A stretch of DNA of 11,184 nucleotides, from contig JALHOS010000238.1 of assembly GCA_022842905.1 (NCBI GenBank), positions 1-11,184 of the forward strand, in the 5' to 3' direction. Position 1 is the first letter of the stretch. Every line of letters begins with the position of its first letter. Under the pieces are notes generated by a model. It was not told the DNA's origin and ran no database searches. It was given only the letters and a program-made list of their open reading frames with translations. This stretch comes from Myxococcaceae bacterium. GTDB taxonomy: Bacteria; Myxococcota; Myxococcia; Myxococcales; Myxococcaceae. The translations under genes and the position numbers were made by a program. Shown one piece after another: positions 1-11,184 of the stretch.

Positions 1-165
1 GAGCCTGCGCCGAAGCCTGCCGAGCCTGCGCCGAAGCCTGCGCCGAAGCCTGCCGAGCCTGCGCCGAAGCCTGCCGAGCCTGCGCCGAAGCCTGCCGAGC
101 CTGCGCCGAAGCCTGCCGAGCCTGCGCCGAAGCCTGCCGAGCCTGCGCCGAAGCCTGCTGAGCCG
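1..165 (+). repeat. 21-bp perfect tandem repeat (gagcctgcgccgaagcctgcc), at least 7.5 copies, in-frame coding for EPAPKPA; one 12-bp half unit at 43-54; array continues upstream of the window
   Basis: Direct reading: units at 1-21, 22-42, 55-75, 76-96, 97-117, 118-138 and 139-159 are identical apart from the last base of two units; degenerate copies follow to about 240. Confidence 0.95.
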
Positions 166-465
166 GTGGCCAAGCCGGCCCCGAAGCCCGTGGAGAAGCC
201 TGCGGCGAAGCCAGCCGAAGCCGAGCCCAAGGCGGAGGCCATGGGGACCTTGTCCCTCAAGGCGAGCGACACCGCCGAGGTGTTCGTCGACGGCAAGAAG
301 GTCGGCTCGTCGCCCATGTCGGGCTTCAAGGTGAAGGCCGGGCCGCACAAGGTCCGCTTCGACTGTCTCGACGCGAGCGGCGCGCCGCAGAAGGGCGAGC
401 TGCAGATTGTGGTGGTCGAGCCCGACCAGAACGCTGACGTCGACTACACCTGCGCGACGGAGTGA
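1..465 (+). CDS. 3' fragment of a gene (5' end outside the window) encoding a Pro/Ala/Lys/Glu-rich repeat protein with a C-terminal PEGA-like beta-sandwich domain
   Basis: Frame 1 is open from base 1 to TGA at 463-465. Bases 1-159 encode perfect EPAPKPA heptads. The C-terminus (...SDTAEVFVDGKKVGSSPMSGFKVKAGPHKVRFDCLDASG...) fits the PEGA domain pattern (xEGAxVxVDGxxxGxTP...GxHxV), a domain common in myxobacterial Ser/Thr kinases and surface proteins. GC3 bias is strong. Confidence 0.7.
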   Translation, partial: EPAPKPAEPAPKPAPKPAEPAPKPAEPAPKPAEPAPKPAEPAPKPAEPAPKPAEPVAKPAPKPVEKPAAKPAEAEPKAEAMGTLSLKASDTAEVFVDGKKVGSSPMSGFKVKAGPHKVRFDCLDASGAPQKGELQIVVVEPDQNADVDYTCATE

Positions 466-1290: not shown

Positions 1291-1499
1291 GGGGTCGCCT
1301 CTACCCTGCGACAAGGTGCGCGTCGACGGCGCGAGTGACTGAGGTGGGTCGGCGCGGATTCGCTGGTCCAGCGGCCCCCGCTCCGATCCGCCCGTGGCTC
1401 GTCAACGCTCTGGCGCTCTTCGACAAACGGGGCGGATCGGCGGCACCCCGCGCGTGGCCTTGCCTTTGCTCTGTCGGTCCTCACGCATCGGAGGGGACC

Positions 1500-2114
1500 A
1501 TGGCGGGAGCGGCGGCGGGTACGAAGCGAGAGGTCGAGCGGCTCAGGGCAGAGGTCGACCGGCTCAAGGACGAGAACCGTCGCCTCATGCAGGTGGCCTA
1601 CCGCGATCCCCTGACCGGGCTGCGCAACCGGCGCTTCTTCAACGAGCGGCTGGGCGAAGAGCTGTGTCGCCTGCGCCGGGAGCCGGACCGCGTGTGCAGC
1701 GTCATCATGGTCGACCTCAACGCCTTCAAGGCGCTCAACGACACGCGGGGCCACGCCGCCGGAGACGCCGCGTTGGTCGCCGTCGGTCACTACCTCGAGT
1801 CGCTCACGCGCACGACGGACCTGTGCTGCCGCGTCGGGGGCGACGAGTTCATCGTGCTGCTGCCGAACACCGACGTGGCGCAGTGCCAGCGCGTGCTGCA
1901 GCGGCTGCGCGCGTACCTGCCTCGGCTGGCGACGACGGGCCTGGGCCAGCGAGGGCTGTCCCTGGGCGCGGCGACGGCGACGGCGAGCGACGACGAGCTG
2001 CGGCTGCTGAGCCGGGCGGACGAGCTGATGTACGCGGACAAGCGTGAAGCCCGCGGCGGCAGCGCCGTGGAAGTGTGCGACGAGCCCGAGCCGTGGCTCG
2101 CTCGGGCGGCCTGA
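1500..2114 (+). CDS. GGDEF-domain diguanylate cyclase (stand-alone: N-terminal coiled coil plus GGDEF, no recognisable sensor domain)
   Basis: The translation contains YRDPLTGLRNRRFF, DLNAFKALNDTRGHAAGD, the exact GGDEF motif (CRVGGDEFIVLLP), an RxxD I-site (RTTD) five residues upstream, and RADELMYADKR. The ATG at 1500 is preceded by GGAGGGG at 1489-1495. The N-terminal 30 aa (REVERLRAEVDRLKDENRRL) look like a heptad coiled coil. The alternative upstream ATG at 1335 lacks an RBS. Confidence 0.85.
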   Translation: MAGAAAGTKREVERLRAEVDRLKDENRRLMQVAYRDPLTGLRNRRFFNERLGEELCRLRREPDRVCSVIMVDLNAFKALNDTRGHAAGDAALVAVGHYLESLTRTTDLCCRVGGDEFIVLLPNTDVAQCQRVLQRLRAYLPRLATTGLGQRGLSLGAATATASDDELRLLSRADELMYADKREARGGSAVEVCDEPEPWLARAA

Positions 2115-2139
2115 CCTCAACCGGTTGTTCTCGGTGTGG

Positions 2140-2620
2140 TGAGCGGCGACGAGCGATGGCGCGACGTCACGCGCCCGTCCTCCTCTCAGCGACGGCGACA
2201 GTGAGCGACCGCCCACGTCACCAGCCGTACACCGCGTGGCGATGACCCGGCGAGGGACGACGAGCGCCCCCCGACGTCACGCGACCGTCCTCTGCGCGGC
2301 GACGGTGATGGTGAGCGACGACGAGCGGCGGCCCAACGCGCCGGTCGTCCTGCGCGTGGCGAGAATGACCGGCGAGGGACGACCTGACGTCACGCGACGG
2401 TTCTCTGCGCGGCGATGATGATGGTGAGCGACCGCCCTACGTCACCAGCCGTCCACCGCGCTGTGACGGTGACCCGGCCAGCGACGACGAGCGACCCCGC
2501 GACGTCACGCGATCGTCCTCCGGGTGGCGATGACTCGACGAGCGACGACGAACGAGGGCCTGACGTCACGCGACGGTCCTCTGCGCATTGTGACGACGAC
2601 GAGCGGTAGCCGAGCAGGGC
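2140..2620. repeat. degenerate 57-bp tandem array of about 9 units, derived from a segment of the GGDEF 3' coding region
   Basis: The motif (g)agcgacgacgagcg recurs about every 57 bp (near 2150, 2258, 2316, 2371, 2430, 2482, 2540, 2594). Each unit contains gacgtcacgcg...cgtcctctgcgcggcgacggtgatggtgagcgacgacgagcg, alignable to GGDEF bases about 1929-1998 (gcgacgacgggcctgggccagcgagggctgtccctgggcgcggcgacggcgacggcgagcgacgacgagc). In the gene the two GACGACG direct repeats lie exactly 57 bp apart (1931 and 1988). Confidence 0.75.
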
Positions 2621-2759
2621 GGACGAGCTCATGGACGCCGACCAGCGTGAAGCCCACCTGGGCTCCTCCGTCGTATTCGGCGACGAGCCCGCGCCCCGAC
2701 GTTCTCAGGCCCTCCTTCATGGGCAACGACCGTGTGCCCCGCGCGCGGCAGAATCGTGA
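2610..2759 (+). pseudogene. remnant of a GGDEF C-terminus (duplicate of bases about 2005-2114), preceded by an in-frame TAG
   Basis: 2619-2700 translates to ADELMDADQREAHLGSSVVFGDEPAP versus ADELMYADKREARGGSAVEVCDEPEP in the intact gene. Nucleotide alignment of ggcggacgagctcatggacgccgaccagcgtgaagccc against ggcggacgagctgatgtacgcggacaagcgtgaagccc is clear. TAG at 2607-2609 is in the same frame immediately upstream; the frame ends at TGA 2757-2759. Antisense ORFs 1287..2216 and 2505..2726 both contain GFTLV(R/G)VH(Q/E)LVRPA, which independently shows the duplication. Confidence 0.55.
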
Positions 2760-2863: not shown

Positions 2864-2998
2864 ACCGCGAACGAGAGGAGGTCGGGGGCGAAAGCGCGGC
2901 GCCTCGAGCAGCGCAGGGTCGACACTCCAGCTTCAAGCGTCGAGCCGAACAGCGTGAGCGCGACACCGCCAAGCCGTCGTTGCGGTGCCCAGACAAGC

Positions 2999-3781
2999 AT
3001 GGTCGAGTCCGCCCGCCCCATGACCTCCTTCGTCGAGCTCCTGGTGGGCTTCCCCACCGCGCCGTTCACCGCCGCGCTGGGGGTGGCGGTGTTGTACTGG
3101 CTGCTCGTCATCGTCGGCGCCGCGGGGGTCGACCTGCTCGACGGCGCGGGCGACGGCGCGGCGGGTGGGGTGAAGGCCGCCGGTGAAGCGCTGTCCGGTG
3201 GGCTCAAGGCGGCGGGCGACGTGCTGGCGGCTGGCAAGGCCGGCGCCGAGGCAGCGCAGGCGAAGAGCGGCGTGTTCGAAACGCTGGGCCTGGGCGGCGT
3301 GCCGGTGACGGTGGCGTTCACGGCGCTGACTTTCTTCGCCTGGGCGACGAGCGTGGGCGTGGTGTCCTGGCTGCACCCCGAGGGCCTCGCGCTGCGGCTG
3401 GCCGTGTTCGTGGGCTCGCTGGTGGCGGGCCTCGTGGCGGGCAGCGCGGTGACGCGGCCGCTGCGTCGGGTGTTCACCAGCGCCGAAGGCCGCCGCCGAG
3501 ACCAGCTGGTGGGGCACCTGTGCACGGTGACGAGCACCAAGGTCGACGCGGGCTTCGGCACCGCCGAGGTGTCGGACGGCGGCGCGGCGATCGCCGTGCA
3601 CGTCGTGTGTCACAAGCAGAACGGGCTGAAGAAGGGCGATGCCGCGCTGCTGATCGCGTACGACGCGCAGAAGGACACGTACGACGTGGAGCCGCTGGAC
3701 TTCCTCGAGCCCCACGAAGTCAAGGCGCTGGACGACCCCGAAGCGCGCAGTCGGGTCTTGGCAGGCCGCATCAAGCTGTAG
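2999..3781 (+). CDS. NfeD-like short-form membrane protein (three TM helices plus C-terminal OB-fold beta-barrel), the usual flotillin partner (YuaF/YqiJ-like)
   Basis: Three hydrophobic helices (FVELLVGFPTAPFTAALGVAVLYWLLVIVGAAGV; VPVTVAFTALTFFAWATSVGVVSWL; LRLAVFVGSLVAGLVAGSAV) are followed by a Gly/Val-rich beta segment (GHLCTVTSTKVDAGFGTAEVSDGGAAIAVHVVCHKQNGLKKGDAALLIAYDAQKDTYDVEP) typical of the NfeD C-terminal domain. The gene sits immediately upstream of flotillin. Start is uncertain between GTG 2954, ATG 2999 and ATG 3020, with no clear SD at any of them. Stop TAG is at 3779-3781. Confidence 0.7.
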   Translation: MVESARPMTSFVELLVGFPTAPFTAALGVAVLYWLLVIVGAAGVDLLDGAGDGAAGGVKAAGEALSGGLKAAGDVLAAGKAGAEAAQAKSGVFETLGLGGVPVTVAFTALTFFAWATSVGVVSWLHPEGLALRLAVFVGSLVAGLVAGSAVTRPLRRVFTSAEGRRRDQLVGHLCTVTSTKVDAGFGTAEVSDGGAAIAVHVVCHKQNGLKKGDAALLIAYDAQKDTYDVEPLDFLEPHEVKALDDPEARSRVLAGRIKL

Positions 3782-3834
3782 CGAAAAGCAGACAGACGAA
3801 CGAGCGCAGTCACATACCGAAGGGGAACGTACCG

Positions 3835-5928
3835 ATGGACATGCACAACGTGGTGGCCGTGTTGACGGTGATTGGCCTCGCCTTCCTGTTCGTGGTGGGC
3901 GTCGCCGTCATGGTGGCGCGCTTCTACCGACAGGTGGCGCAGGGCCAGGTGTTGATCGTCAACACCATGAAGAGCGAGCCGCGGGTGAGCTTCACTGGCG
4001 CGGTGGTGCTCCCCATCATCCACCGGGCGGAGATCATGGATATCTCGCTCAAGACCATCGAGATCGATCGCCGCGGGAAGGAAGGCCTCATCTGCGCGGA
4101 CAACATTCGCGCCGACATCAAGGTCGCCTTCTTCGTGCGGGTGAACAAGACGGTGGAGGACGTGGTGAAGGTGGCCGGCGCCGTCGGCTGCGCCCGCGCG
4201 TCGGACCAGCAGACGTTGAGCCACCTGTTCGAAGCGAAGTTCTCCGAAGCGCTCAAGACCGTCGGCAAGCGGCTCAACTTCGAAGACCTCTACAAGGAGC
4301 GTGACAGCTTCAAGGACCAGATCGTCCAGGTCATCGGCAAGGACCTGAACGGCTACCACCTCGAAGACGCGGCGATCGACTTCCTGGAGCAGACGCCGAT
4401 CGAGATGCTCGACAAGGAGAACATTCTCGACGCGCAGGGCATTCGGAAGATCACCGAGCTGACCAGCAACCAGAACGTGCTGACCAACGATTTCAAGCAG
4501 ACCGAGCGCAAGCGGATCACCCAGCAGAACGTCGAAGCCGACGAGGCGGTGTTCGCGCTCGAGCGGCAGCGCGCCGAGGCCGCGGCCAAGCAGAAGCGGG
4601 AGATCGAGACCGTGCAGGCCCGCGAGCAGGCCGAGACGATGAAGGTGCAGCAGGAAGAGCACCTGCGCGCCGAGCAGGCCCGCATTCGGTCGGACGAAGA
4701 GATCAGCGTGCTCGAGCAGAACCGCATGCGGCAGGTCGAGGTCGCCGAGAAGAACCGCGAGCGTGTCGTCGGCATCGAAGCCGAGCGCGTGAAGAAGGAC
4801 CGCGACCTCGAGGCGATCGCCCGCGAGCGTGAGGTGGAGCTGCAGCGGATCGTCAAGGAGAAGGCGCTGGAAGTGGAGCGCAAGGCGATCGCCGACGTGA
4901 AGGCGACCCGCATCACCGTCGACAAGAAGGTGGCCACCGAAGAGGAGACCATCAAGGACGTGCACGTGCTGGCCGAGGCCAAGCGCAAGAAGGACGCGCA
5001 GATCATCGCCGCCGAGGCCACCGCCATGGAAGACGCGGTGCAGCGGGTGAAGGCCGCCGAGGCCGCCGAAGAGGTGTCGCGGCACGAAGCCAAGCAGCGG
5101 CTCATCTCCGCGGAGGCGTCGCTGGAGGCCGCCGACAAGGAAGCGCGGGCGAAGATTCGGCTGGCCGAAGGCGCGCAGGCCGAAGCCGCCGCGCAGGGCC
5201 TGGCCGACGCCAAGGTGAAGGAAGCCAACGCCGCCGCCGCTGAGAAGGTGGGCCTGGCGAACGTGCGCGTGAAGGAAGCGGACGCGGTGGCGACGGAGAA
5301 GGCGGGGCTCGTGCAGGCGCACATCACCAAGGAGCAGCTGGCCGCCGAGGCGCTGGGGCTCGAGCAGAAGGGCGTGGCGCAGGCGAAGGTGAAGGAAGCC
5401 GACGCCGCCGCGCTCGAGAAGCAGGGGCTGGCCGAGGCGTCGGCGATCAAGGCCAAGGTGTCGGCCGAGGCGTCCGGGGTGCAAGAGCGGCTGCTCGCCG
5501 AGTCGAAGGGGCTCAAGGAGAAGGCCGAGGCCATGAAGCTGCTGCAGGGCGCCACCAAGGAGCACGAGGAGTTCCGCCTCAAGCTCGAGAAGGAGAAGGC
5601 GGTCGAGCTGCGCGGGCTCGAGGTCAAGCGCGACATCGCCGAGCAGCAGGCGAAGGTCATGGGCGCGGCGTTCTCGCAGGCGAAGATCAACATCATGGGC
5701 GGCGACGGCGCGTTCTTCGACCAGTTCATGAAGGCGGTGACGCTGGGCCAGTCGGTGGACGGCGCCATTGGCCACAGCGATTCGCTCAAGACGCTGCTCA
5801 AGCCGTACCTGAACGGCGACAAGAGCCTGCCGGACGACGTCAAGGAGATCCTCTCCAAGCCGGGCCTGACGCAAGACGCGCAGAACCTCGCGCTCACCGC
5901 CCTGCTCACCAAGCTCGCCAAGAGCTGA
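3835..5928 (+). CDS. flotillin-family protein (YqiK/FloT-like): N-terminal TM anchor, SPFH/Band-7 domain, long EA-rich coiled coil, flotillin C-terminal region; 697 aa
   Basis: ATG at 3835 is preceded by AAGGGGA at about 3816-3824. The TM segment is VVAVLTVIGLAFLFVVGVAVMVARF. The SPFH core reads GQVLIVNTMKSEPRVSFTGAVVLPIIHRAEIMDISLKTIEIDRRGKEGLICADNIRADIKVAFFVRVNK. Heptad Glu/Ala/Lys/Arg-rich coiled coil spans roughly 4550-5560, with internal KVKEA(D/N)AAA(L/A)EK repeats near 5190-5420. Stop TGA is at 5926-5928. Confidence 0.9.
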   Translation: MDMHNVVAVLTVIGLAFLFVVGVAVMVARFYRQVAQGQVLIVNTMKSEPRVSFTGAVVLPIIHRAEIMDISLKTIEIDRRGKEGLICADNIRADIKVAFFVRVNKTVEDVVKVAGAVGCARASDQQTLSHLFEAKFSEALKTVGKRLNFEDLYKERDSFKDQIVQVIGKDLNGYHLEDAAIDFLEQTPIEMLDKENILDAQGIRKITELTSNQNVLTNDFKQTERKRITQQNVEADEAVFALERQRAEAAAKQKREIETVQAREQAETMKVQQEEHLRAEQARIRSDEEISVLEQNRMRQVEVAEKNRERVVGIEAERVKKDRDLEAIAREREVELQRIVKEKALEVERKAIADVKATRITVDKKVATEEETIKDVHVLAEAKRKKDAQIIAAEATAMEDAVQRVKAAEAAEEVSRHEAKQRLISAEASLEAADKEARAKIRLAEGAQAEAAAQGLADAKVKEANAAAAEKVGLANVRVKEADAVATEKAGLVQAHITKEQLAAEALGLEQKGVAQAKVKEADAAALEKQGLAEASAIKAKVSAEASGVQERLLAESKGLKEKAEAMKLLQGATKEHEEFRLKLEKEKAVELRGLEVKRDIAEQQAKVMGAAFSQAKINIMGGDGAFFDQFMKAVTLGQSVDGAIGHSDSLKTLLKPYLNGDKSLPDDVKEILSKPGLTQDAQNLALTALLTKLAKS

Positions 5929-5935
5929 AGCCCCC

Positions 5936-8900
5936 ATGGCGACCAGTGAGGTGAACCTCGAGGGCGGCAGCTACGAGGTGATTCGGTCGCGGCTGGCCGG
6001 CCAGGCGACGCAGCTGGCCCAGGCCGCCGAGGCGCTCAACCAGAAGCGCCGCGAGGAGTTCGGCGGTGACGAGCTGGCCGTGGCCGGCAACGACCGCGTC
6101 CGCACCGAGCACAGCTGCGTGGCCCGCGACATCGTCCCGTTGGGCAGCCGACTCTTGCTCGGCTTCAACGTCTTCATGGGCCTCAAGCAGGAACGCGCCC
6201 CGAAAGACGTGTTCAGCCTGCACCAGTTCGTTCGCCAGCCCGACGGCACGTTCAACTTCGACGAGCTCAAGCCGAGTGAGGGCGGCGGCTTCCTCGAGGA
6301 CCGCCGCTTCGCCAAGGACTTCGGCGAGCTGACTCGCTACTACAAGGACTGCAAGCTGCTGCGGCTCTTGCGCACCGACGGCCGGCTCCTCGCGGTGATG
6401 CAGACGGGCCTGACGCTGCGCGACGTGAAGGTGTTCCGCTTCAGCGTCGACCAGGAAGGCCGCGCCACCTACCTGGACCTCAACGGCGAGAGCGAGCTGC
6501 CCCGCGTGCCCACGCACGACTTCGAATGGACCCGGCTGGGCCGCGAAGACGTGGTGCAGGGCCGCTTCCCGCACGTCAACGTCTTCGACGAGATCTTCGT
6601 GGAGACGATGGGCGGCGACCTGACGGTGAAGGTCGAGAACAACACCGAGACGGGCCAGGGCATCTTCTCGGAGCCCGTCGCCGAGAAGGACCAGTCGCTG
6701 GACGACGCCGAGTTCCACGTCGCGAAGGCCGGCGGCCTCATCCTCCTCAAGGTGCGGCCGTTCCGCGAAGAGGCGTACCGCTACCTCGTCTACAACCCGA
6801 GCACGCGGGAAGTGCACCGCGTGGACGGCTTGGGGCTGTCTTGTGTGCAGCTCCCAGAAGAGCAGGGCGTCGCGTTCCCCGGCGGCTACGCGCTGCGCAC
6901 CGGCGAAGTGAAGACGTTCGACGGCGACTGGTCGGAGCTGGCGTTCGAGCGCGCGCTCAAGAGCCCCAACGGGGAAGACGTGCTGTACGTCTTCTTCGGG
7001 CTCAAGTCCGGTCGCTACCTGCTGCTGCCGTACAACCTGGTCCGCAAGGAAATGGCGAGCCCGCTGCCCTGCCACGGCTGGTCGCTCTTCCCTGACGGGC
7101 AGCTCGTCATCTTCAAGGGCACCAGCGACGAGCCGACCCGCGTGCACCCCATGCAGGTGTGGAAGACGCCGTTCCTCTCGGCCGAAGTACACGCCGCCCG
7201 CCCGCCCCGGGCCACCGCGCTCGGCCGAATCGGCAACGCGGACCTGGTGCGCGGCATCGCCGACGTGCTGACGCTCAAGCGGCTGGCCAGCGCGGACAAG
7301 CCGACGCGGCGCACGTGGGAAGAGCTGGTCTCGCAGGCGCAGCGCGCGCTCGACGCGTACTTCTGGCTGTCGGAGCCGAGCGTGGCGCTGGCGGACCAGG
7401 TCCGCGCGGTGAAGGCGTCGGCGGAGCTGATCCTCGACGAGTTCGAGAAGGTACAGGCGCTCAAGAAGCGCGCGCAGGACGGCATGGCCGACGCCGAGGC
7501 GCAGGTCAGCCAGCTGCTCTCGAACACCACGCCCGGCGTGCTCACCAGCACGCAGGAGTTCATGGGCGCGCTGCAGGCCATTCGCAGCCAGCGGGGCAAG
7601 CTCATCACCCTCAAGGAAGTCCGCTACGTCGACGTGGCCCGGCTCGACGCCATGGAAGGGCAGCTGGTCGAGCAGGCCGGCGCCGTCAGCCAGGCCTGCG
7701 TCGAGTTCCTTTTGACGCCCAGCGCCTTCGACGCGGTGAAGGCCGAGCTGGCCCAAGCCCAGCAGCGCGTGGACGCCGTCGCGCGCACGGCCGAGCTCGA
7801 GCCGCTCGTCAAACAGCTCGAGGAGACGGGGCAGGGGTTGGACCTGCTCGGCGAGGCCGTCGCGGCGCTCAAGGCCGGCGACGCGGACCAGAAGGCGCAG
7901 ATCCTCGAGCGGCTCTCGGAGGTGTACGCCCAGCTCAACCGCACCCGCGGCGGCGCGCTGGCCAAGCGCAAGGACCTGCTCACCAAGGACCAGCGCGCGG
8001 AGTTCGGCGCGCAGTTCAAGCTGCTGGGCCAGGCGCTGGAGAGCGCGCTGGCGCTGACCGACACCCCGGAGCGCTGTGACGAGCAGCTCGCCCGGCTGTC
8101 GGTGCAGCTCGAAGAGCTCGAAGGCCGCTTCGCCGAGCTCGACGAGTTCGCCACCCCGCTCGCCGAGCGGCGAGAGGCGCTGTTCGAAGCGTTCGAATCG
8201 AAGAAGCGCACGTTGGTGGACGAGCGGCAGCGACGCGCGCTCAACCTGTTCCAGGCGGCGGAACGAATCCTCCAGGGCGTGCAGCGGCGGGTGAAGGCCT
8301 TCACCACCGAAGACGAGCTCAACGCGTTCTTCGCCGGCGACGCCATGCTCGAGAAGCTGCGCGAGCTGGGCAAGCAGCTGCTCGCGCTCAAGGACTCGGT
8401 GAAGGCCGACGAGCTGGAGTCCAAGCTCAAGGCCGCCAAGCAGGACGCGCTGCGCGGCCTGCGCGACAAGAAGGACCTGTTCGAAGACGGCCAGAACGTC
8501 ATCAAGCTGGGCGATCAACGCTTCAACGTGAACACGCAGCCGGTGGAGCTGACCGTGCTGCCCAAGGACGGCGCGCTCTGTCTGCACGTGACGGGCACCG
8601 ACTACCTCCAGCCGCTTCAGGACGCCGCGCTCGAGCAGCACAAGGCGCTGTGGGACCGCACGCTGCCCAGCGAGGCGCCGCACGTGTACCGGGCCGAGAC
8701 GCTGGCCGCGACGCTGCTGTTCCGCGCCGAAGCCGGAGAAGGGGGCCTGTCGCTGCTGCGCCTGCGTGAGGCCGTCAACGCCGCGGACGGCGGGCTGTCG
8801 GCGGTGCGGCAGGTCGCGCAGGACCGCTTCGACGAAGGCTACGAGCGCGGTGTGCACGACGCCGACGCCACGGTGATCCTCGGCGAGGTGTTGCGCGCGT

Positions 8901-11184
8901 ACGAGCTGGCCGGCCTGCTGCGCTACCCCGGCACCGCGCGGGCGTGGGCGGCGCTGTACTGGGGCCTGCTCGTCGACCCCAAGGACAAGCCTTCGGCGCA
9001 GCGGCAGGCGCAGAGCTTCGGCCGGCTCAAGGACACCTTCGCCACCAGCCCTGCCTTCGCGCAGGTGGTGCAGGACTGGGCCGGGCGCCTGGCCAAGCGC
9101 TGCGGGGCCGAAGGGCTGGACGTGAAGGGCGCGGACGCGGCGCTCGCGGCGCGCTACCTCCTCGAGGAGCTGGGTCAGGACGACGTGCGCTTCGTCACGT
9201 CGCACGACGCGCTGCTGCTCAAGGACGGGCTGCTCGCCGCGCTGGACTCACAAGGGACCCGGGCCCGCTTCCTGGACGACCTGAGTCAGGTGAGCGCGCT
9301 GTTGGACCGCTGGCGGCTGGCCCGCGCGTGGCTCGACGCGGTGGTGGTCGCGCCTTCGAGCGGCGCTGCGCTCAAGGGGCTGGCGCACGCGGTCGACGAA
9401 GCGGCGGCGCTCTTGGTGGTGGGGCCCGACGTGCTCCCTCGCCGCGAGAGCCAGGCGCTGGTGGCCGGCCGCGTCACCGGCCTGCTCGGGCAGCACCCGC
9501 GCATCGTCGACCGAGCGCTCGACGTGCGCATCGACGAGTTCGTCAGCCGGCTGTCGGCGTTCGTGCGCGACGACGTGCCGGCGTTCCACACGTTCCGCGG
9601 ACTGGTGCGCCGCGTGCTCGACGAACAGAAGGCGAAGCTGCGCCTGGACGAGCTGGTGCCCAAGGTGCTCTCGAGCTTCGTGCGCAACGAGCTCATCGAC
9701 AGCGTGTACCTGCCGCTCATCGGGAAGAACTTGGCCAAGCAGCTGGGCGCCGCCGGCGACACCAAGCGCACCGACCGCATGGGCATGCTCTTGCTCATCT
9801 CCCCGCCGGGCTACGGGAAGACGACGCTCATGGAGTACGTGGCCAGCAGGCTGGGGCTCGTGTTCGTCAAGGTGAACGGGCCGGCGCTGGGGCACCAGGT
9901 GCTGTCGTTGGACCCGGCCGACGCGCCCAACGCCACCGCGCGGCAGGAGGTCGAGCGCATCAACTTCGCGTTCGAGCTGGGCAACAACGTCATGTTGTAC
10001 CTGGACGACATTCAGCACACGAACGCGGAGCTGCTGCAGAAGTTCATCTCCCTGTGTGACGGGCAGCGCCGGGTGGAAGGTGTCTGGGGCGGCAAGACGC
10101 GCACGTACGATCTGCGCGGCAAGAAGTTCTGCGTGGTGATGGCCGGCAACCCGTACACGGAGAGCGGCGAGACGTTCAAGATTCCGGACATGCTCGCCAA
10201 CCGCGCCGACACGTACAACCTGGGCGACATTCTCGACGGGAAGCAGCAGGTGTTCGCGCAGAGCTACCTCGAGAACGCGCTCACGGCGAACCCGGTGCTC
10301 GCGCCGTTGTCCGGCCGCGCGCGCGGCGACGTGCTCAAGCTGTTCGCCATGGCCCGAGGTGAGCCGGTCGCGGCGACGGATCTCGAGCACCCGTACTCAG
10401 CGGTGGAACTGCAGGAGATCGTCGCCGTGCTGCAGCGCCTGTTCCGGGTGCAGGCGACGCTGCTCAAGGTGAACCAGCAGTACATCGCCTCCGCCGCGCA
10501 GGACGATCGCTACCGCACCGAGCCGCCGTTCAAGCTCCAGGGCAGCTACCGCAACATGGGCAAGCTGGCCGAGAAGGTCGTCGCGGGCATGACGGACGAC
10601 GAGGTGGAACGGCTCGTCGACGGGCACTACGCCCAGGAATCCCAGACGCTCACCACCGCGGCGGAGCAGAACCTGCTCAAGCTGGCCGAGCTGCGCGGGC
10701 GGCTGACCGAAGCGCAGGCGCAGCGCTGGGCCGAGCTCAAGCGCGGCTACCAGCGCGTGCAGCTCATGGGCGGAGGTGAAGATGACCCGGTGGCGCGCGT
10801 CACCGGCTCCATCGCCACGCTCGGCGCGAGGCTCGAGACCATCGGCACTGCCGTCGAGAAGGCCACTGCACGGCCTCCGCCACCCGCGCCCAACCTGGAA
10901 GGCGTGACAGAAGGGCTGTCCGTGGTGGCCTCGGCGCTCGAGAAGAGCCTGGCGCCGCGAGCTGCCTCGGAAGACGGAACCCTCAAGGCGCTGCTCGGCT
11001 CGCTATCTGCGTCTCTGGCGGAGCGCGCGGCCACACCTCAGAAGGTCAGCGACGACGCGCTGGTGCACGCGGTGCAGAGCGTCGCGCGGGTGTTGGCCGA
11101 GGTCGGTCAGAAGCCCACCGGCGGCGACGGCGGCCTCGTGGAGGCGGTCGAGGGGCTCACCCAGGTCGTCAAGGCGGCGCTGGA
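5936..11184 (+). CDS. giant multidomain protein of at least 1749 aa (3' end outside the window) with an ATPase core near residue 1290; N-terminal roughly 480-aa beta-rich region and roughly 450-aa alpha-helical/coiled-coil middle region
   Basis: ATG at 5936 lies 7 nt after the flotillin stop. The frame is open to the window end; I translated it by hand with no stops, GC3 bias is strong throughout, and no '+' track ORF shares the frame. Walker A is LLISPPGYGKTTL (9800-9826) and Walker B is VMLYLDD (9989-10009); CVVMAGNP fits sensor 1, then ...NRADTYNLGD.... Minus-strand ORFs 5906..9205 and 9248..10390 are its antisense shadows. Confidence 0.85.
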   Translation, partial: MATSEVNLEGGSYEVIRSRLAGQATQLAQAAEALNQKRREEFGGDELAVAGNDRVRTEHSCVARDIVPLGSRLLLGFNVFMGLKQERAPKDVFSLHQFVRQPDGTFNFDELKPSEGGGFLEDRRFAKDFGELTRYYKDCKLLRLLRTDGRLLAVMQTGLTLRDVKVFRFSVDQEGRATYLDLNGESELPRVPTHDFEWTRLGREDVVQGRFPHVNVFDEIFVETMGGDLTVKVENNTETGQGIFSEPVAEKDQSLDDAEFHVAKAGGLILLKVRPFREEAYRYLVYNPSTREVHRVDGLGLSCVQLPEEQGVAFPGGYALRTGEVKTFDGDWSELAFERALKSPNGEDVLYVFFGLKSGRYLLLPYNLVRKEMASPLPCHGWSLFPDGQLVIFKGTSDEPTRVHPMQVWKTPFLSAEVHAARPPRATALGRIGNADLVRGIADVLTLKRLASADKPTRRTWEELVSQAQRALDAYFWLSEPSVALADQVRAVKASAELILDEFEKVQALKKRAQDGMADAEAQVSQLLSNTTPGVLTSTQEFMGALQAIRSQRGKLITLKEVRYVDVARLDAMEGQLVEQAGAVSQACVEFLLTPSAFDAVKAELAQAQQRVDAVARTAELEPLVKQLEETGQGLDLLGEAVAALKAGDADQKAQILERLSEVYAQLNRTRGGALAKRKDLLTKDQRAEFGAQFKLLGQALESALALTDTPERCDEQLARLSVQLEELEGRFAELDEFATPLAERREALFEAFESKKRTLVDERQRRALNLFQAAERILQGVQRRVKAFTTEDELNAFFAGDAMLEKLRELGKQLLALKDSVKADELESKLKAAKQDALRGLRDKKDLFEDGQNVIKLGDQRFNVNTQPVELTVLPKDGALCLHVTGTDYLQPLQDAALEQHKALWDRTLPSEAPHVYRAETLAATLLFRAEAGEGGLSLLRLREAVNAADGGLSAVRQVAQDRFDEGYERGVHDADATVILGEVLRAYELAGLLRYPGTARAWAALYWGLLVDPKDKPSAQRQAQSFGRLKDTFATSPAFAQVVQDWAGRLAKRCGAEGLDVKGADAALAARYLLEELGQDDVRFVTSHDALLLKDGLLAALDSQGTRARFLDDLSQVSALLDRWRLARAWLDAVVVAPSSGAALKGLAHAVDEAAALLVVGPDVLPRRESQALVAGRVTGLLGQHPRIVDRALDVRIDEFVSRLSAFVRDDVPAFHTFRGLVRRVLDEQKAKLRLDELVPKVLSSFVRNELIDSVYLPLIGKNLAKQLGAAGDTKRTDRMGMLLLISPPGYGKTTLMEYVASRLGLVFVKVNGPALGHQVLSLDPADAPNATARQEVERINFAFELGNNVMLYLDDIQHTNAELLQKFISLCDGQRRVEGVWGGKTRTYDLRGKKFCVVMAGNPYTESGETFKIPDMLANRADTYNLGDILDGKQQVFAQSYLENALTANPVLAPLSGRARGDVLKLFAMARGEPVAATDLEHPYSAVELQEIVAVLQRLFRVQATLLKVNQQYIASAAQDDRYRTEPPFKLQGSYRNMGKLAEKVVAGMTDDEVERLVDGHYAQESQTLTTAAEQNLLKLAELRGRLTEAQAQRWAELKRGYQRVQLMGGGEDDPVARVTGSIATLGARLETIGTAVEKATARPPPPAPNLEGVTEGLSVVASALEKSLAPRAASEDGTLKALLGSLSASLAERAATPQKVSDDALVHAVQSVARVLAEVGQKPTGGDGGLVEAVEGLTQVVKAAL

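Follow-up and report, generated by a model that had tools for sequence, protein, structure and literature searches.

A flotillin gene and its YqiJ-like partner followed by a gene for a giant beta-propeller AAA+ protein in a Myxococcaceae bacterium

Introduction

SPFH scaffolds repeatedly pair with AAA+ machines, as HflK/C does with FtsH and prohibitin with the m-AAA protease. Within the AAA+ superfamily, MoxR ATPases normally act with a partner that carries a VWA/MIDAS domain. The operons yqiJ-yqiK of E. coli and yuaF-yuaG (floT) of B. subtilis are NfeD-flotillin operons of the SPFH2 type (Hinderhofer et al., 2009; PMC2636767), in which a small NfeD-like membrane protein is encoded ahead of a flotillin that combines an N-terminal anchor with an SPFH domain and a coiled coil rich in Ala and Glu.

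A module of YqiJ/YuaF, a band-7/flotillin protein and a 'novel AAA+ ATPase with beta-propeller' has been described by comparative analysis, often adjoining a CesT/Tir-PspA pair, for example in Dokdonia donghaensis (ANH61663.1) (Popp et al., 2024; PMC11237479). Its authors offered a functional suggestion similar to ours, the remodeling of flotillin scaffolds in membrane stress; they noted the regulation of assembly by PspA homologues that lack an associated AAA ATPase as unknown, and suggested that short operons may work with a PspA encoded elsewhere. The study is purely comparative, with no experiment, Pfam family name or AAA+ clade assignment.

Here we analyze a related locus from a Myxococcaceae bacterium (assembly GCA_022842905.1). 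The window, which is the whole 11,184-nucleotide stretch examined (contig JALHOS010000238.1), encodes the same three families, likewise ordered, and its giant protein shares the published domain architecture; Hymenobacter and Pontibacter loci that match the published arrangement encode giants that we confirmed as homologues of the window protein. Of the full published operon, the window has neither the CesT/Tir-PspA pair nor the phospholipase-D gene, and it carries what that study terms an abbreviated form. The earlier note on this DNA held that the system had not been characterized experimentally, and our literature search found no paper that mentions DUF3686, the N-terminal family of the giant; the association of flotillin and ATPase, however, is not new, having been reported in PMC11237479. 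The opening genes resemble yqiJ-yqiK and yuaF-yuaG in kind and order, but the E. coli operon ends after yqiK and has no giant ATPase.

Results

Organization of the three-gene locus

Three co-oriented genes on the plus strand span positions 3020 to 11184:

3020..3781, plus strand: YqiJ/YuaF-type NfeD-like membrane protein of about 253 residues (hydrophobicity scan, homologue alignment, hhalign and conserved position)
3835..5928, plus strand: YqiK-type flotillin (SPFH2-like) of 697 residues (BLASTP and hhalign against E. coli YqiK)
5929..5935, plus strand: 7-nt spacer from the TGA of the flotillin gene to the ATG of the giant gene (read from the sequence)
5936..11184, plus strand: giant cytoplasmic DUF3686-DUF7902-AAA+ protein, 1749 codons in the window (open frame and Pfam)

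The spacer between the first two genes is 53 nt, and no terminator-like site lies between the module genes in the window. The flotillin gene runs from an ATG at 3835 to a TGA at 5926-5928, and the giant gene begins with an ATG at 5936; the 7-nt gap reported in the earlier note is therefore exact. Its claim of an unbroken giant reading frame also stands, as all 1749 codons from 5936 to 11184 are free of stops and the frame continues beyond the window end. The minus strand holds an open reading frame of 1099 residues at 5906-9205; long antisense frames are common in DNA of 70% GC. Despite such frames, homology identifies the plus-strand genes as the real ones.

The flotillin and its YqiJ-like partner

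The flotillin gene encodes four regions:

3835-3939, plus strand: N-terminal transmembrane anchor (hydrophobic segment, residues 1-35)
about 3940-4524, plus strand: SPFH domain (YqiK homology)
about 4525-5634, plus strand: Ala/Glu/Lys-rich coiled-coil repeats (composition)
after the repeats and before the stop codon, plus strand: conserved C-terminal region

The protein matches E. coli YqiK by BLASTP (2e-34, 27% identity over 470 residues) and by hhalign (probability 99.9%), with homology that covers the transmembrane and SPFH regions and runs to residue 464 in the former and about residue 427 in the latter. Ala, Glu and Lys make up 21%, 17% and 11% of residues 231-600. The predicted SPFH domain, N-terminal anchor and Ala/Glu-rich coiled coil together mark it as an SPFH/flotillin protein. 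It has no Pfam Band_7 match even at E<=10, and the NCBIfam FloT model scores it at 25 bits against a cut-off of 700, while close relatives carry Band_7 (PF01145). It belongs to a longer subfamily (650-750 residues) whose members are 32-53% mutually identical across phyla, and most of which fail the Pfam Band_7 model.

For the upstream gene, the start at 3020 is likelier than the ATG at 2999, which would give 260 residues, because it agrees with the homologue alignment (seven other taxa) and with the 251-residue gene call in the closest relative. Its product comprises:

about 3038-3148, 3284-3367 and 3380-3457, plus strand: three hydrophobic segments (hydrophobicity scan)
about 3491-3718, plus strand: beta-rich C-terminal domain; the protein also has a Gly/Ala-rich loop

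The protein has no Pfam, NCBIfam or PDB sequence match of its own. It aligns with E. coli YqiJ by hhalign (probability 76%, E 2e-5), and one of eight homologues matches Pfam NfeD (E 0.0024). In 56 of 60 metagenomic loci the flotillin gene is directly preceded by a co-oriented NfeD-like gene. We consider this gene better named YqiJ/YuaF type, on sequence evidence that is moderate. In the earlier note's classic NfeD-flotillin pair, the flotillin is a strong YqiK homologue and its partner a probable YqiJ homologue on moderate evidence; neither protein passes any Pfam model.

Architecture of the giant protein

The closest relative (P0001) is 84% identical and 1842 residues long, and the full-length giant is probably about 1840 residues; relatives range from 1744 to 2162. 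Pfam finds DUF3686 over residues 27-476 (2e-182), bearing out the family that the earlier note named together with its 'DNA repair ATPase' label, as well as DUF7902 (1e-20) and AAA (7.7e-7), the domain set expected of this family of proteins of about 1600-2000 residues. DUF3686 is matched by 735 cluster representatives and is always N-terminal. A hydrophobicity scan found no transmembrane segment in the giant. Its regions outside the ATPase are:

6077..7165, plus strand: beta-propeller, residues about 48-410, the core of DUF3686 (AF2 model m2dca519d4b1d, mean pLDDT 87.5)
7235..8479, plus strand: all-helical region, residues 434-848, with helices of up to about 60 residues (Pfam and AF2 model)
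7724-7972, plus strand: DUF7902, residues 597-679 (Pfam)
8546..9655, plus strand: second mostly helical domain, residues 871-1240 (AF2 model m9c31db70e3cd, pLDDT >90)
10766..11182, plus strand: helical low-complexity C-terminal tail (pLDDT 48-70)

A long helix (residues 12-42) precedes the propeller, whose Foldseek matches are propeller-containing proteins (E 3e-7 to 1e-3). No PDB match covers residues 871-1240. The C-terminal tail varies in length among relatives and is truncated where the window stops; similarity in tblastn tapers off about 80 residues past the AAA+ module. The region ahead of the ATPase, described in the earlier note as a long coiled coil, is thus more than that: a propeller is followed by a helical region (434-848) and a second, mostly helical domain (871-1240). 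The pairing with the flotillin coiled coil that the note suggested is speculative.

For the arrangement of a propeller followed by long helices, the best Foldseek matches are Nup155, IFT-A subunits and clathrin heavy chain. These model-based matches would be consistent with a coat-like membrane protein with a built-in motor, which with flotillin might drive or reverse budding, vesicle formation or microdomain turnover. We regard this as very unlikely; if true, the giant would be a prokaryotic analogue of a coat and its uncoating ATPase in one polypeptide.

A MoxR-like AAA+ motor

The ATPase core lies where the earlier note placed it, near residue 1290:

9683..10765, plus strand: MoxR/midasin-type AAA+ module, residues about 1250-1610
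9809-9823, plus strand: Walker A GYGKT, residues 1292-1296
9998-10015, plus strand: Walker B YLDDIQ, residues 1355-1360
10139-10153, plus strand: sensor-1 MAGNP, residues 1402-1406
10193-10210, plus strand: arginine motif LANRAD, residues 1420-1425

Among solved structures, its fold is closest to midasin and to the MoxR-family remodelers CbbQ and NorQ; in sequence, the half that contains Walker A resembles classical AAA proteins more. The module has a MoxR/midasin-clade AAA+ fold, and its nucleotide-binding motifs are intact. All four motifs are invariant in 83 homologues, which argues for an active enzyme. The DD of Walker B, also invariant in the family, replaces the usual DE, and catalytic behavior may be unusual. 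Compared with CbbQ-CbbO, NorQ-NorD, RavA-ViaA and midasin, the giant carries, in the same chain as its ATPase, propeller and helical domains of about 1250 residues. It differs from MoxR-family remodelers in its Walker B and in the lack of a VWA/MIDAS partner: neither the window proteins nor the annotated and Pfam-listed neighbors in related loci showed a VWA domain.

Pfam and NCBI label such proteins 'ATPase involved in DNA repair' or 'DNA repair ATPase', and on that reading the flotillin adjacency would have no bearing on function. The AAA+ module does show a weak RuvB_N match (E 3.6e-4) and Foldseek matches to RuvB at about E 1e-3, but this similarity does not extend beyond the generic P-loop region. 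The giant showed no DNA-binding domain, no DNA-repair gene recurs among its neighbors, against a flotillin gene in 96% of loci, and our literature search found no paper backing the label. A DNA-repair role therefore appears extremely improbable; the label seems to have been carried over from an old annotation of a long helical ATPase, and 'MoxR-like' is a better description of the motor.

Conservation of the gene linkage

In 67 of 70 informative metagenomic loci (about 96%), the gene immediately upstream of the giant, in the same orientation, encodes a flotillin-like protein. Such a gene takes the same position in all ten PLSDB plasmid-collection records, which span Pseudomonadota, Actinomycetota, Bacteroidota and Deinococcota, as well as in about 27 of the 30 loci from Myxococcota; look-ups that started from two flotillin homologues both led to an adjoining DUF3686 giant. 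At least five bacterial phyla share the trio. The neighborhood survey thus bears out the conserved, co-oriented module that the earlier note foresaw, with flotillin the usual rather than a rare neighbor of the giant. Its tight coupling applies to this locus but is not universal: junctions range from a 4-nt overlap (L041) and a 1-nt spacing (L048) to about 200 nt. A few giants have no flotillin neighbor and adjoin kinases or AIM24 and an M48 peptidase, which shows that the ATPase can exist without an adjoining flotillin gene.

The wider neighborhood bears on two further readings. PspA is encoded directly upstream of the module in 19 of 51 metagenomic loci, about a third, and the order in Bacteroidota is CesT/Tir-PspA-YqiJ-flotillin-giant; neither gene turned up in the window or the Myxococcota loci when three PspA and two CesT sequences were used as tblastn queries. 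The giant may mainly remodel ESCRT-III-like PspA/IM30 polymers, as Vps4 acts on ESCRT-III, with flotillin and NfeD serving only as a recruiting membrane platform. The linkage to PspA fits this reading, as do the published remarks on PspA homologues without an AAA ATPase and on short operons with a remote PspA (PMC11237479). We consider it a credible but rather unlikely account of the giant's main role.

The second reading is an anti-phage or conflict system, in which the propeller-AAA+ giant would sense invasion and flotillin/NfeD would act as a membrane-disrupting effector in abortive infection. Defense systems often include large NTPases with repeat domains, and the module is patchily distributed and often borne on plasmids or megaplasmids (pQBR103 and plasmids of Hymenobacter, Streptomyces and Deinococcus). 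In Bacteroidota its neighbors include regulators of the LexA-like or HTH type and a DUF559 insertion, and one orphan giant has a HipA toxin kinase close by. However, the PADLOC output was only Walker-A-level noise, no homologue was found among 50,697 phage records, and the module has no nuclease, protease or other effector domain. The flotillin component occurs on at least 1000 Proteus mirabilis contigs and looks like a widespread chromosomal gene, and the module's neighbors are ion transporters, PspA and other housekeeping genes. A defense function is improbable on this balance.

Discussion

We propose, with moderate confidence, that the three genes encode one membrane-associated module in which the giant is an ATP-driven remodeler or assembly factor for a flotillin scaffold in membrane stress. 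The flotillin would be anchored by its one N-terminal helix, with the SPFH domain and coiled coil in the cytoplasm, where they would oligomerize into a scaffold against the inner side of the cytoplasmic membrane, and the YqiJ/NfeD-like protein, with its three predicted transmembrane segments, would be its usual small partner. As the giant has no transmembrane segment, and the single N-terminal segment of the flotillin is followed by basic residues, the two should meet in the cytoplasm. There the N-terminal propeller and helical arms may bind the flotillin/NfeD assembly or the clients that it holds, and ATP hydrolysis by the MoxR-like module, presumably ring-forming, could drive assembly, opening, disassembly or repositioning of the scaffold in membrane or envelope stress. 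Because the module is joined to CesT/Tir-PspA in many genomes, it probably acts alongside ESCRT-III-like membrane repair by PspA; the PspA and CesT/Tir-PspA neighbors, together with a yjf operon at the pQBR103 locus, speak for a stress context. The conserved linkage, the short or overlapping junctions and the identities of the flotillin and the ATPase also favor this proposal. Against it stand the lack of a VWA/MIDAS partner, the DD of Walker B, the few giants that have no flotillin gene beside them and the linkage of PspA in only about a third of loci.

By analogy, this module may resemble HflK/C-FtsH and prohibitin-m-AAA as an SPFH scaffold coupled to an AAA+ machine at the membrane. In those systems, however, the AAA+ protein is a membrane-anchored protease inside the cage, whereas here it is a soluble giant of another AAA+ clade with no protease domain.

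The widely propagated name 'DNA repair ATPase' is probably misleading for this family. A giant AAA+ partner offers an experimental handle on the mechanism of bacterial flotillins, since ATPase-dead mutants, pull-downs and cryo-EM are all feasible, and the module is present in tractable Proteus mirabilis, Myxococcus and Streptomyces and on the P. fluorescens plasmid pQBR103. Furthermore, the frequent PspA neighborhood ties SPFH scaffolds to ESCRT-III-like polymers, linking two systems of membrane maintenance.

Gene layout of the window

The window has a GC content of about 70% and carries the following features.

1-465, forward strand: 3' end of an (EPAPKPA)n repeat/PEGA-like gene, cut by the window start
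1-164, forward strand: perfect 21-nt tandem repeats coding for (EPAPKPA)n
1335-2114, forward strand: GGDEF diguanylate cyclase (Pfam, 1e-37)
2954-3781, forward strand: open reading frame of gene 1 (NfeD-like), with candidate ATG codons at 2999 and 3020
3835-5928, forward strand: gene 2 (flotillin-like), 697 aa, from the ATG at 3835 to a TGA at 5926-5928
5936 to window end, forward strand: gene 3 (the giant), opening with an ATG

The domain that follows the (EPAPKPA)n repeats narrowly misses the Pfam cut-off for PEGA (E 6e-4), and a spacer of about 900 nt separates the GGDEF gene from gene 1. Alignment of homologues and a 251-aa gene call in the closest relative favor 3020 as the start of gene 1. 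Upstream of the gene 2 ATG there is a GAAGGGGAA motif. Our promoter and terminator scan detected no terminator-like site between the three genes; it returned no promoter-like sites, and terminator-like sites did not exceed those in shuffled sequence. Rfam found no RNA families in the window at E<=0.1. The earlier note had described an NfeD-flotillin operon extended by a giant ATPase gene; the coordinates, with the giant's frame open for 1749 codons from a start 7 nt past the gene 2 stop, and the lack of a terminator-like site between the genes show that this layout was correct as written.

Gene 1 encodes a probable YqiJ-type protein, gene 2 a YqiK-type flotillin

Neither the flotillin-like nor the NfeD-like protein passed any Pfam model or matched a PDB sequence, whether searched as single sequences or as homologue profiles, and the flotillin-like protein reached only 25 bits on NCBIfam FloT. 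As these searches were essentially empty, we set the identity of both proteins by direct comparison with E. coli yqiJ-yqiK, taken from MG1655. The 697-aa protein matches YqiK by BLASTP (E 2e-34, 27% identity over 470 residues) from the membrane anchor through the SPFH domain into the first part of the coiled coil, and by profile comparison with a probability of 99.9%. Among its relatives, PF01145 is present or the annotation reads 'flotillin family protein' or 'SPFH domain-containing protein'. The protein is a flotillin of a longer, distinct subfamily, whose members from five phyla are 32-53% identical to it. The NfeD-like protein, which combines three hydrophobic segments with a C-terminal domain rich in beta structure, aligns with YqiJ with an hhalign probability of 76% (E 2e-5). 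DUF1449 features in the annotation of both its Hymenobacter homologue ('DUF1449 family protein') and YqiJ of MG1655 (a DUF1449 domain-containing protein). On sequence and position we accept it as the probable NfeD partner, of the YqiJ/YuaF type.

Some Myxococcota loci (L003, L014, L020 and L022) have a further SPFH-domain gene, short at about 200 aa and seen as matches of about 600 nt between the NfeD-like and long flotillin genes. It shares 53-58% identity with the flotillin's N-terminal part, a situation reminiscent of the SPFH2 gene duplications reported in cyanobacteria (PMC2636767).

The flotillin-giant linkage is conserved across phyla

The giant's neighborhood was surveyed in three collections. 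Among 33 Myxococcota genome loci, 30 had usable upstream sequence, and a full or contig-truncated flotillin-like gene lies directly upstream of the giant in 27 of these; a Deinococcus marmoris locus counted among the 30 has a flotillin fragment only, and two (L016 and L019) have no flotillin-like gene, a Ser/Thr kinase standing upstream in L019 instead. All ten records from the PLSDB plasmid collection show flotillin followed by the giant, with an NfeD-like gene detectable in 7-8. They come from Pseudomonas fluorescens (pQBR103), two Streptomyces, Nonomuraea, Hymenobacter, Proteus mirabilis, Deinococcus grandis, Vibrio campbellii, Photobacterium and Halomonas, and several are multi-megabase replicons, apparently mislabelled chromosomes or chromids. 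A profile-based metagenome scan yielded 80 loci at 41-57% identity, with a flotillin-like gene directly upstream in 67 of the 70 that had at least 1 kb of upstream sequence and an NfeD-like gene in 56 of the 60 with at least 3.1 kb; the three without flotillin adjoin a histidine kinase, a Ser/Thr kinase, and AIM24 with an M48 peptidase. In a reverse look-up from two flotillin homologues found by profile search, both had a DUF3686 giant downstream and a gene of about 200 aa, free of Pfam hits, upstream.

The three genes are thus co-oriented and often tightly spaced, and their linkage is conserved across phyla. That homologues of the giant mostly adjoin flotillin genes bears out the association put forward in the earlier note. 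The tight coupling it stressed holds in the window but is not universal, as flotillin-giant spacers in relatives range from a 4-nt overlap (L041) or 1 nt (L048) up to about 200 nt (L036).

Giants lacking an upstream flotillin-like gene were seen in loci L016, L019, L053, L061 and L102. Ser/Thr kinases lie near the giant in L019 and L061 and a hybrid histidine kinase in L053; in L102 its neighbors are AIM24, an M48 peptidase and, further upstream, a HipA kinase. In Proteus mirabilis (L037; protein P0429) the module sits on the chromosome and seems to be widespread. Its flotillin partner occurs on at least 1000 contigs, mostly annotated 'hypothetical protein', and the 4-Mb PLSDB 'plasmid' records that hold the module are apparently mislabelled chromosomes.

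Relation to published operons

The literature searched contained no mention of DUF3686, no paper joining flotillin with 'DNA repair ATPase', and nothing relevant on Myxococcus or Proteus flotillin. The SPFH operon survey of Hinderhofer et al. (2009; PMC2636767) described NfeD-flotillin pairs and did not mention the ATPase. Popp et al. (mSystems 2024; preprint 2020; PMC11237479) described CesT/Tir-PspA combined with the three-gene module, gave a supplementary example from Dokdonia donghaensis, and noted of the abbreviated operons, which have no PspA, that they 'are more widely distributed'. Our Hymenobacter and Pontibacter loci show this published arrangement, and their giants are confirmed homologues of that in the window. 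PspA and CesT are absent from the window, which therefore represents the abbreviated form. The flotillin-giant association is already on record, as a comparative-genomic note only (PMC11237479). The locus adds one more case to an operon type that computational work had described before, and is not a new discovery.

Domain structure of the giant

Pfam searches and two AlphaFold2 models, built from an 83-sequence alignment of Myxococcota and Bacteroidota homologues and both confident (mean pLDDT 87.5 and 83.9), give the following map of the giant.

Residues 12-42: long N-terminal helix (AlphaFold2)
Residues 27-476: DUF3686, 'ATPase involved in DNA repair' (Pfam, 2e-182)
Residues 48-410: all-beta domain (AlphaFold2)
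Residues 434-848: all-helical region (AlphaFold2)
Residues 597-679: DUF7902 (Pfam, 1e-20)
Residues 871-1240: second, mostly helical domain (AlphaFold2)
Residues ~1250-1610: AAA+ module (AlphaFold2)
Residues 1285-1408: AAA (Pfam, 7.7e-7) and AAA_5 (Pfam, 1.5e-5)
After the AAA+ module: poorly ordered helical tail (AlphaFold2)

The DUF3686 family, suggested in the earlier note, is borne out by the Pfam search of the translated giant. This domain matches 735 cluster representatives at 50% identity and always stands at the protein N-terminus. A true role in DNA repair is very improbable, and we could see no support for the name 'DNA repair ATPase'. The giant has no membrane segment and is a soluble protein. 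The closest relative (84% identity) has 1842 aa, which places about 90 residues beyond the window end; full-length relatives span 1744-2162 aa by stop-to-stop frames, which overstate protein length.

Foldseek matched the first half of the giant to proteins with propeller and helical domains (Nup155, IFT-A, clathrin heavy chain, Elp1, DDB1 and prolyl oligopeptidase; E 3e-7 to 1e-3, low TM-scores), which confirms the modelled beta-propeller and little more. A STAND/NACHT reading was rejected: the Pfam NACHT match (E 0.0027), in the helical region, gave no qualifying stretch, and the domain order does not fit either.

By sequence, the giant resembles solved proteins in the Walker A half only, where the likeness is to the classical-clade proteins VAT, Rix7 and NVL; among PDB sequences, a family profile matched no more than Rix7 and NVL in their Walker A region. 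Across the alignment, Walker A (GYGKT), Walker B (YLDDIQ), sensor-1 (MAGNP) and the LANRAD arginine motif show little or no variation. Walker B (LDDIQH; residues 1355-1360, window 9998-10015) has Asp-Asp, not the canonical Asp-Glu, in all 83 aligned homologues, and this is unusual where an AAA+ protein should hydrolyze ATP. We assign the motor to the MoxR/midasin clade, as a MoxR-like motor with conserved catalytic motifs.

A proposed role for the module

We propose, with about even confidence, that the giant is an ATP-driven remodeller of the flotillin/NfeD scaffold. The flotillin body would face the cytoplasm, because Arg residues come after its single N-terminal transmembrane segment, just as they do in YqiK and FloT. 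The giant would bind the scaffold or its clients through its propeller and helical arms, and would spend ATP on assembling, opening or dismantling it, probably in membrane stress. The link to stress comes from neighboring genes: about a third of loci have PspA and CesT/Tir nearby, pQBR103 has the yjf operon, one orphan giant adjoins an M48 peptidase, and Streptomyces loci have K+/Na+ transport genes. PspA itself was present in 19 of the 51 metagenome loci with at least 4.4 kb of upstream sequence. That the giant has a Vps4-like role on PspA polymers we consider unlikely. Less probable again is that the module is a defence system, as PADLOC gave only Walker-A-level matches, to IetA and mad8, and the phage collection held no homologue of the DUF3686 domain. 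The remaining probability falls to functions outside the remodeller proposal and its rivals, DNA repair among them.

In the three Streptomyces loci (L035, L040 and L047) the module adjoins TrkA/TrkH, NhaA, an ArsB/NhaD transporter and a Na+/H+ exchanger, suggesting that in this clade it is tied to ionic or osmotic stress.

Upstream repeat array and GGDEF genes

A degenerate repeat array occupies window positions 2125-2640, between the GGDEF and NfeD-like genes. Its units of about 55-61 nt are often paired at about 110 nt, and GACGTCACGCG occurs in five exact copies (2163, 2273, 2386, 2501 and 2562) and nowhere else in the window. Rfam gave no match for the array. At its place the closest relative's locus (L049) has a spacer of only 268 nt, and none of the 49 related loci compared has the 13-mer GACGTCACGCGAC, which three of the five window copies contain. 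To judge by this, the sequence upstream of the operon has apparently undergone an insertion or expansion specific to its lineage. The array could consist of regulator-binding sites or be a dispersed repeat.

In several unrelated loci a GGDEF gene lies no more than a few kb from the module (window 1335-2114; L049 1032-1640; L038 3336-4994; L004 and L018 ~15970-16480; L030 4449-6446, minus strand). Their side and strand are inconsistent among loci, and we treat a functional link to the module as unproven; the recurrence may be chance in GGDEF-rich genomes or a hint of c-di-GMP control.

Significance

Overall, the finding of the earlier note is real and its interpretation largely right. What is new here is the quantified flotillin-giant linkage (~96%), the placement of the motor in the MoxR/midasin clade together with its invariant DD Walker B, the domain map of the giant, and the finding that the 'DNA repair ATPase' label lacks visible support. 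The system is widespread and experimentally accessible.
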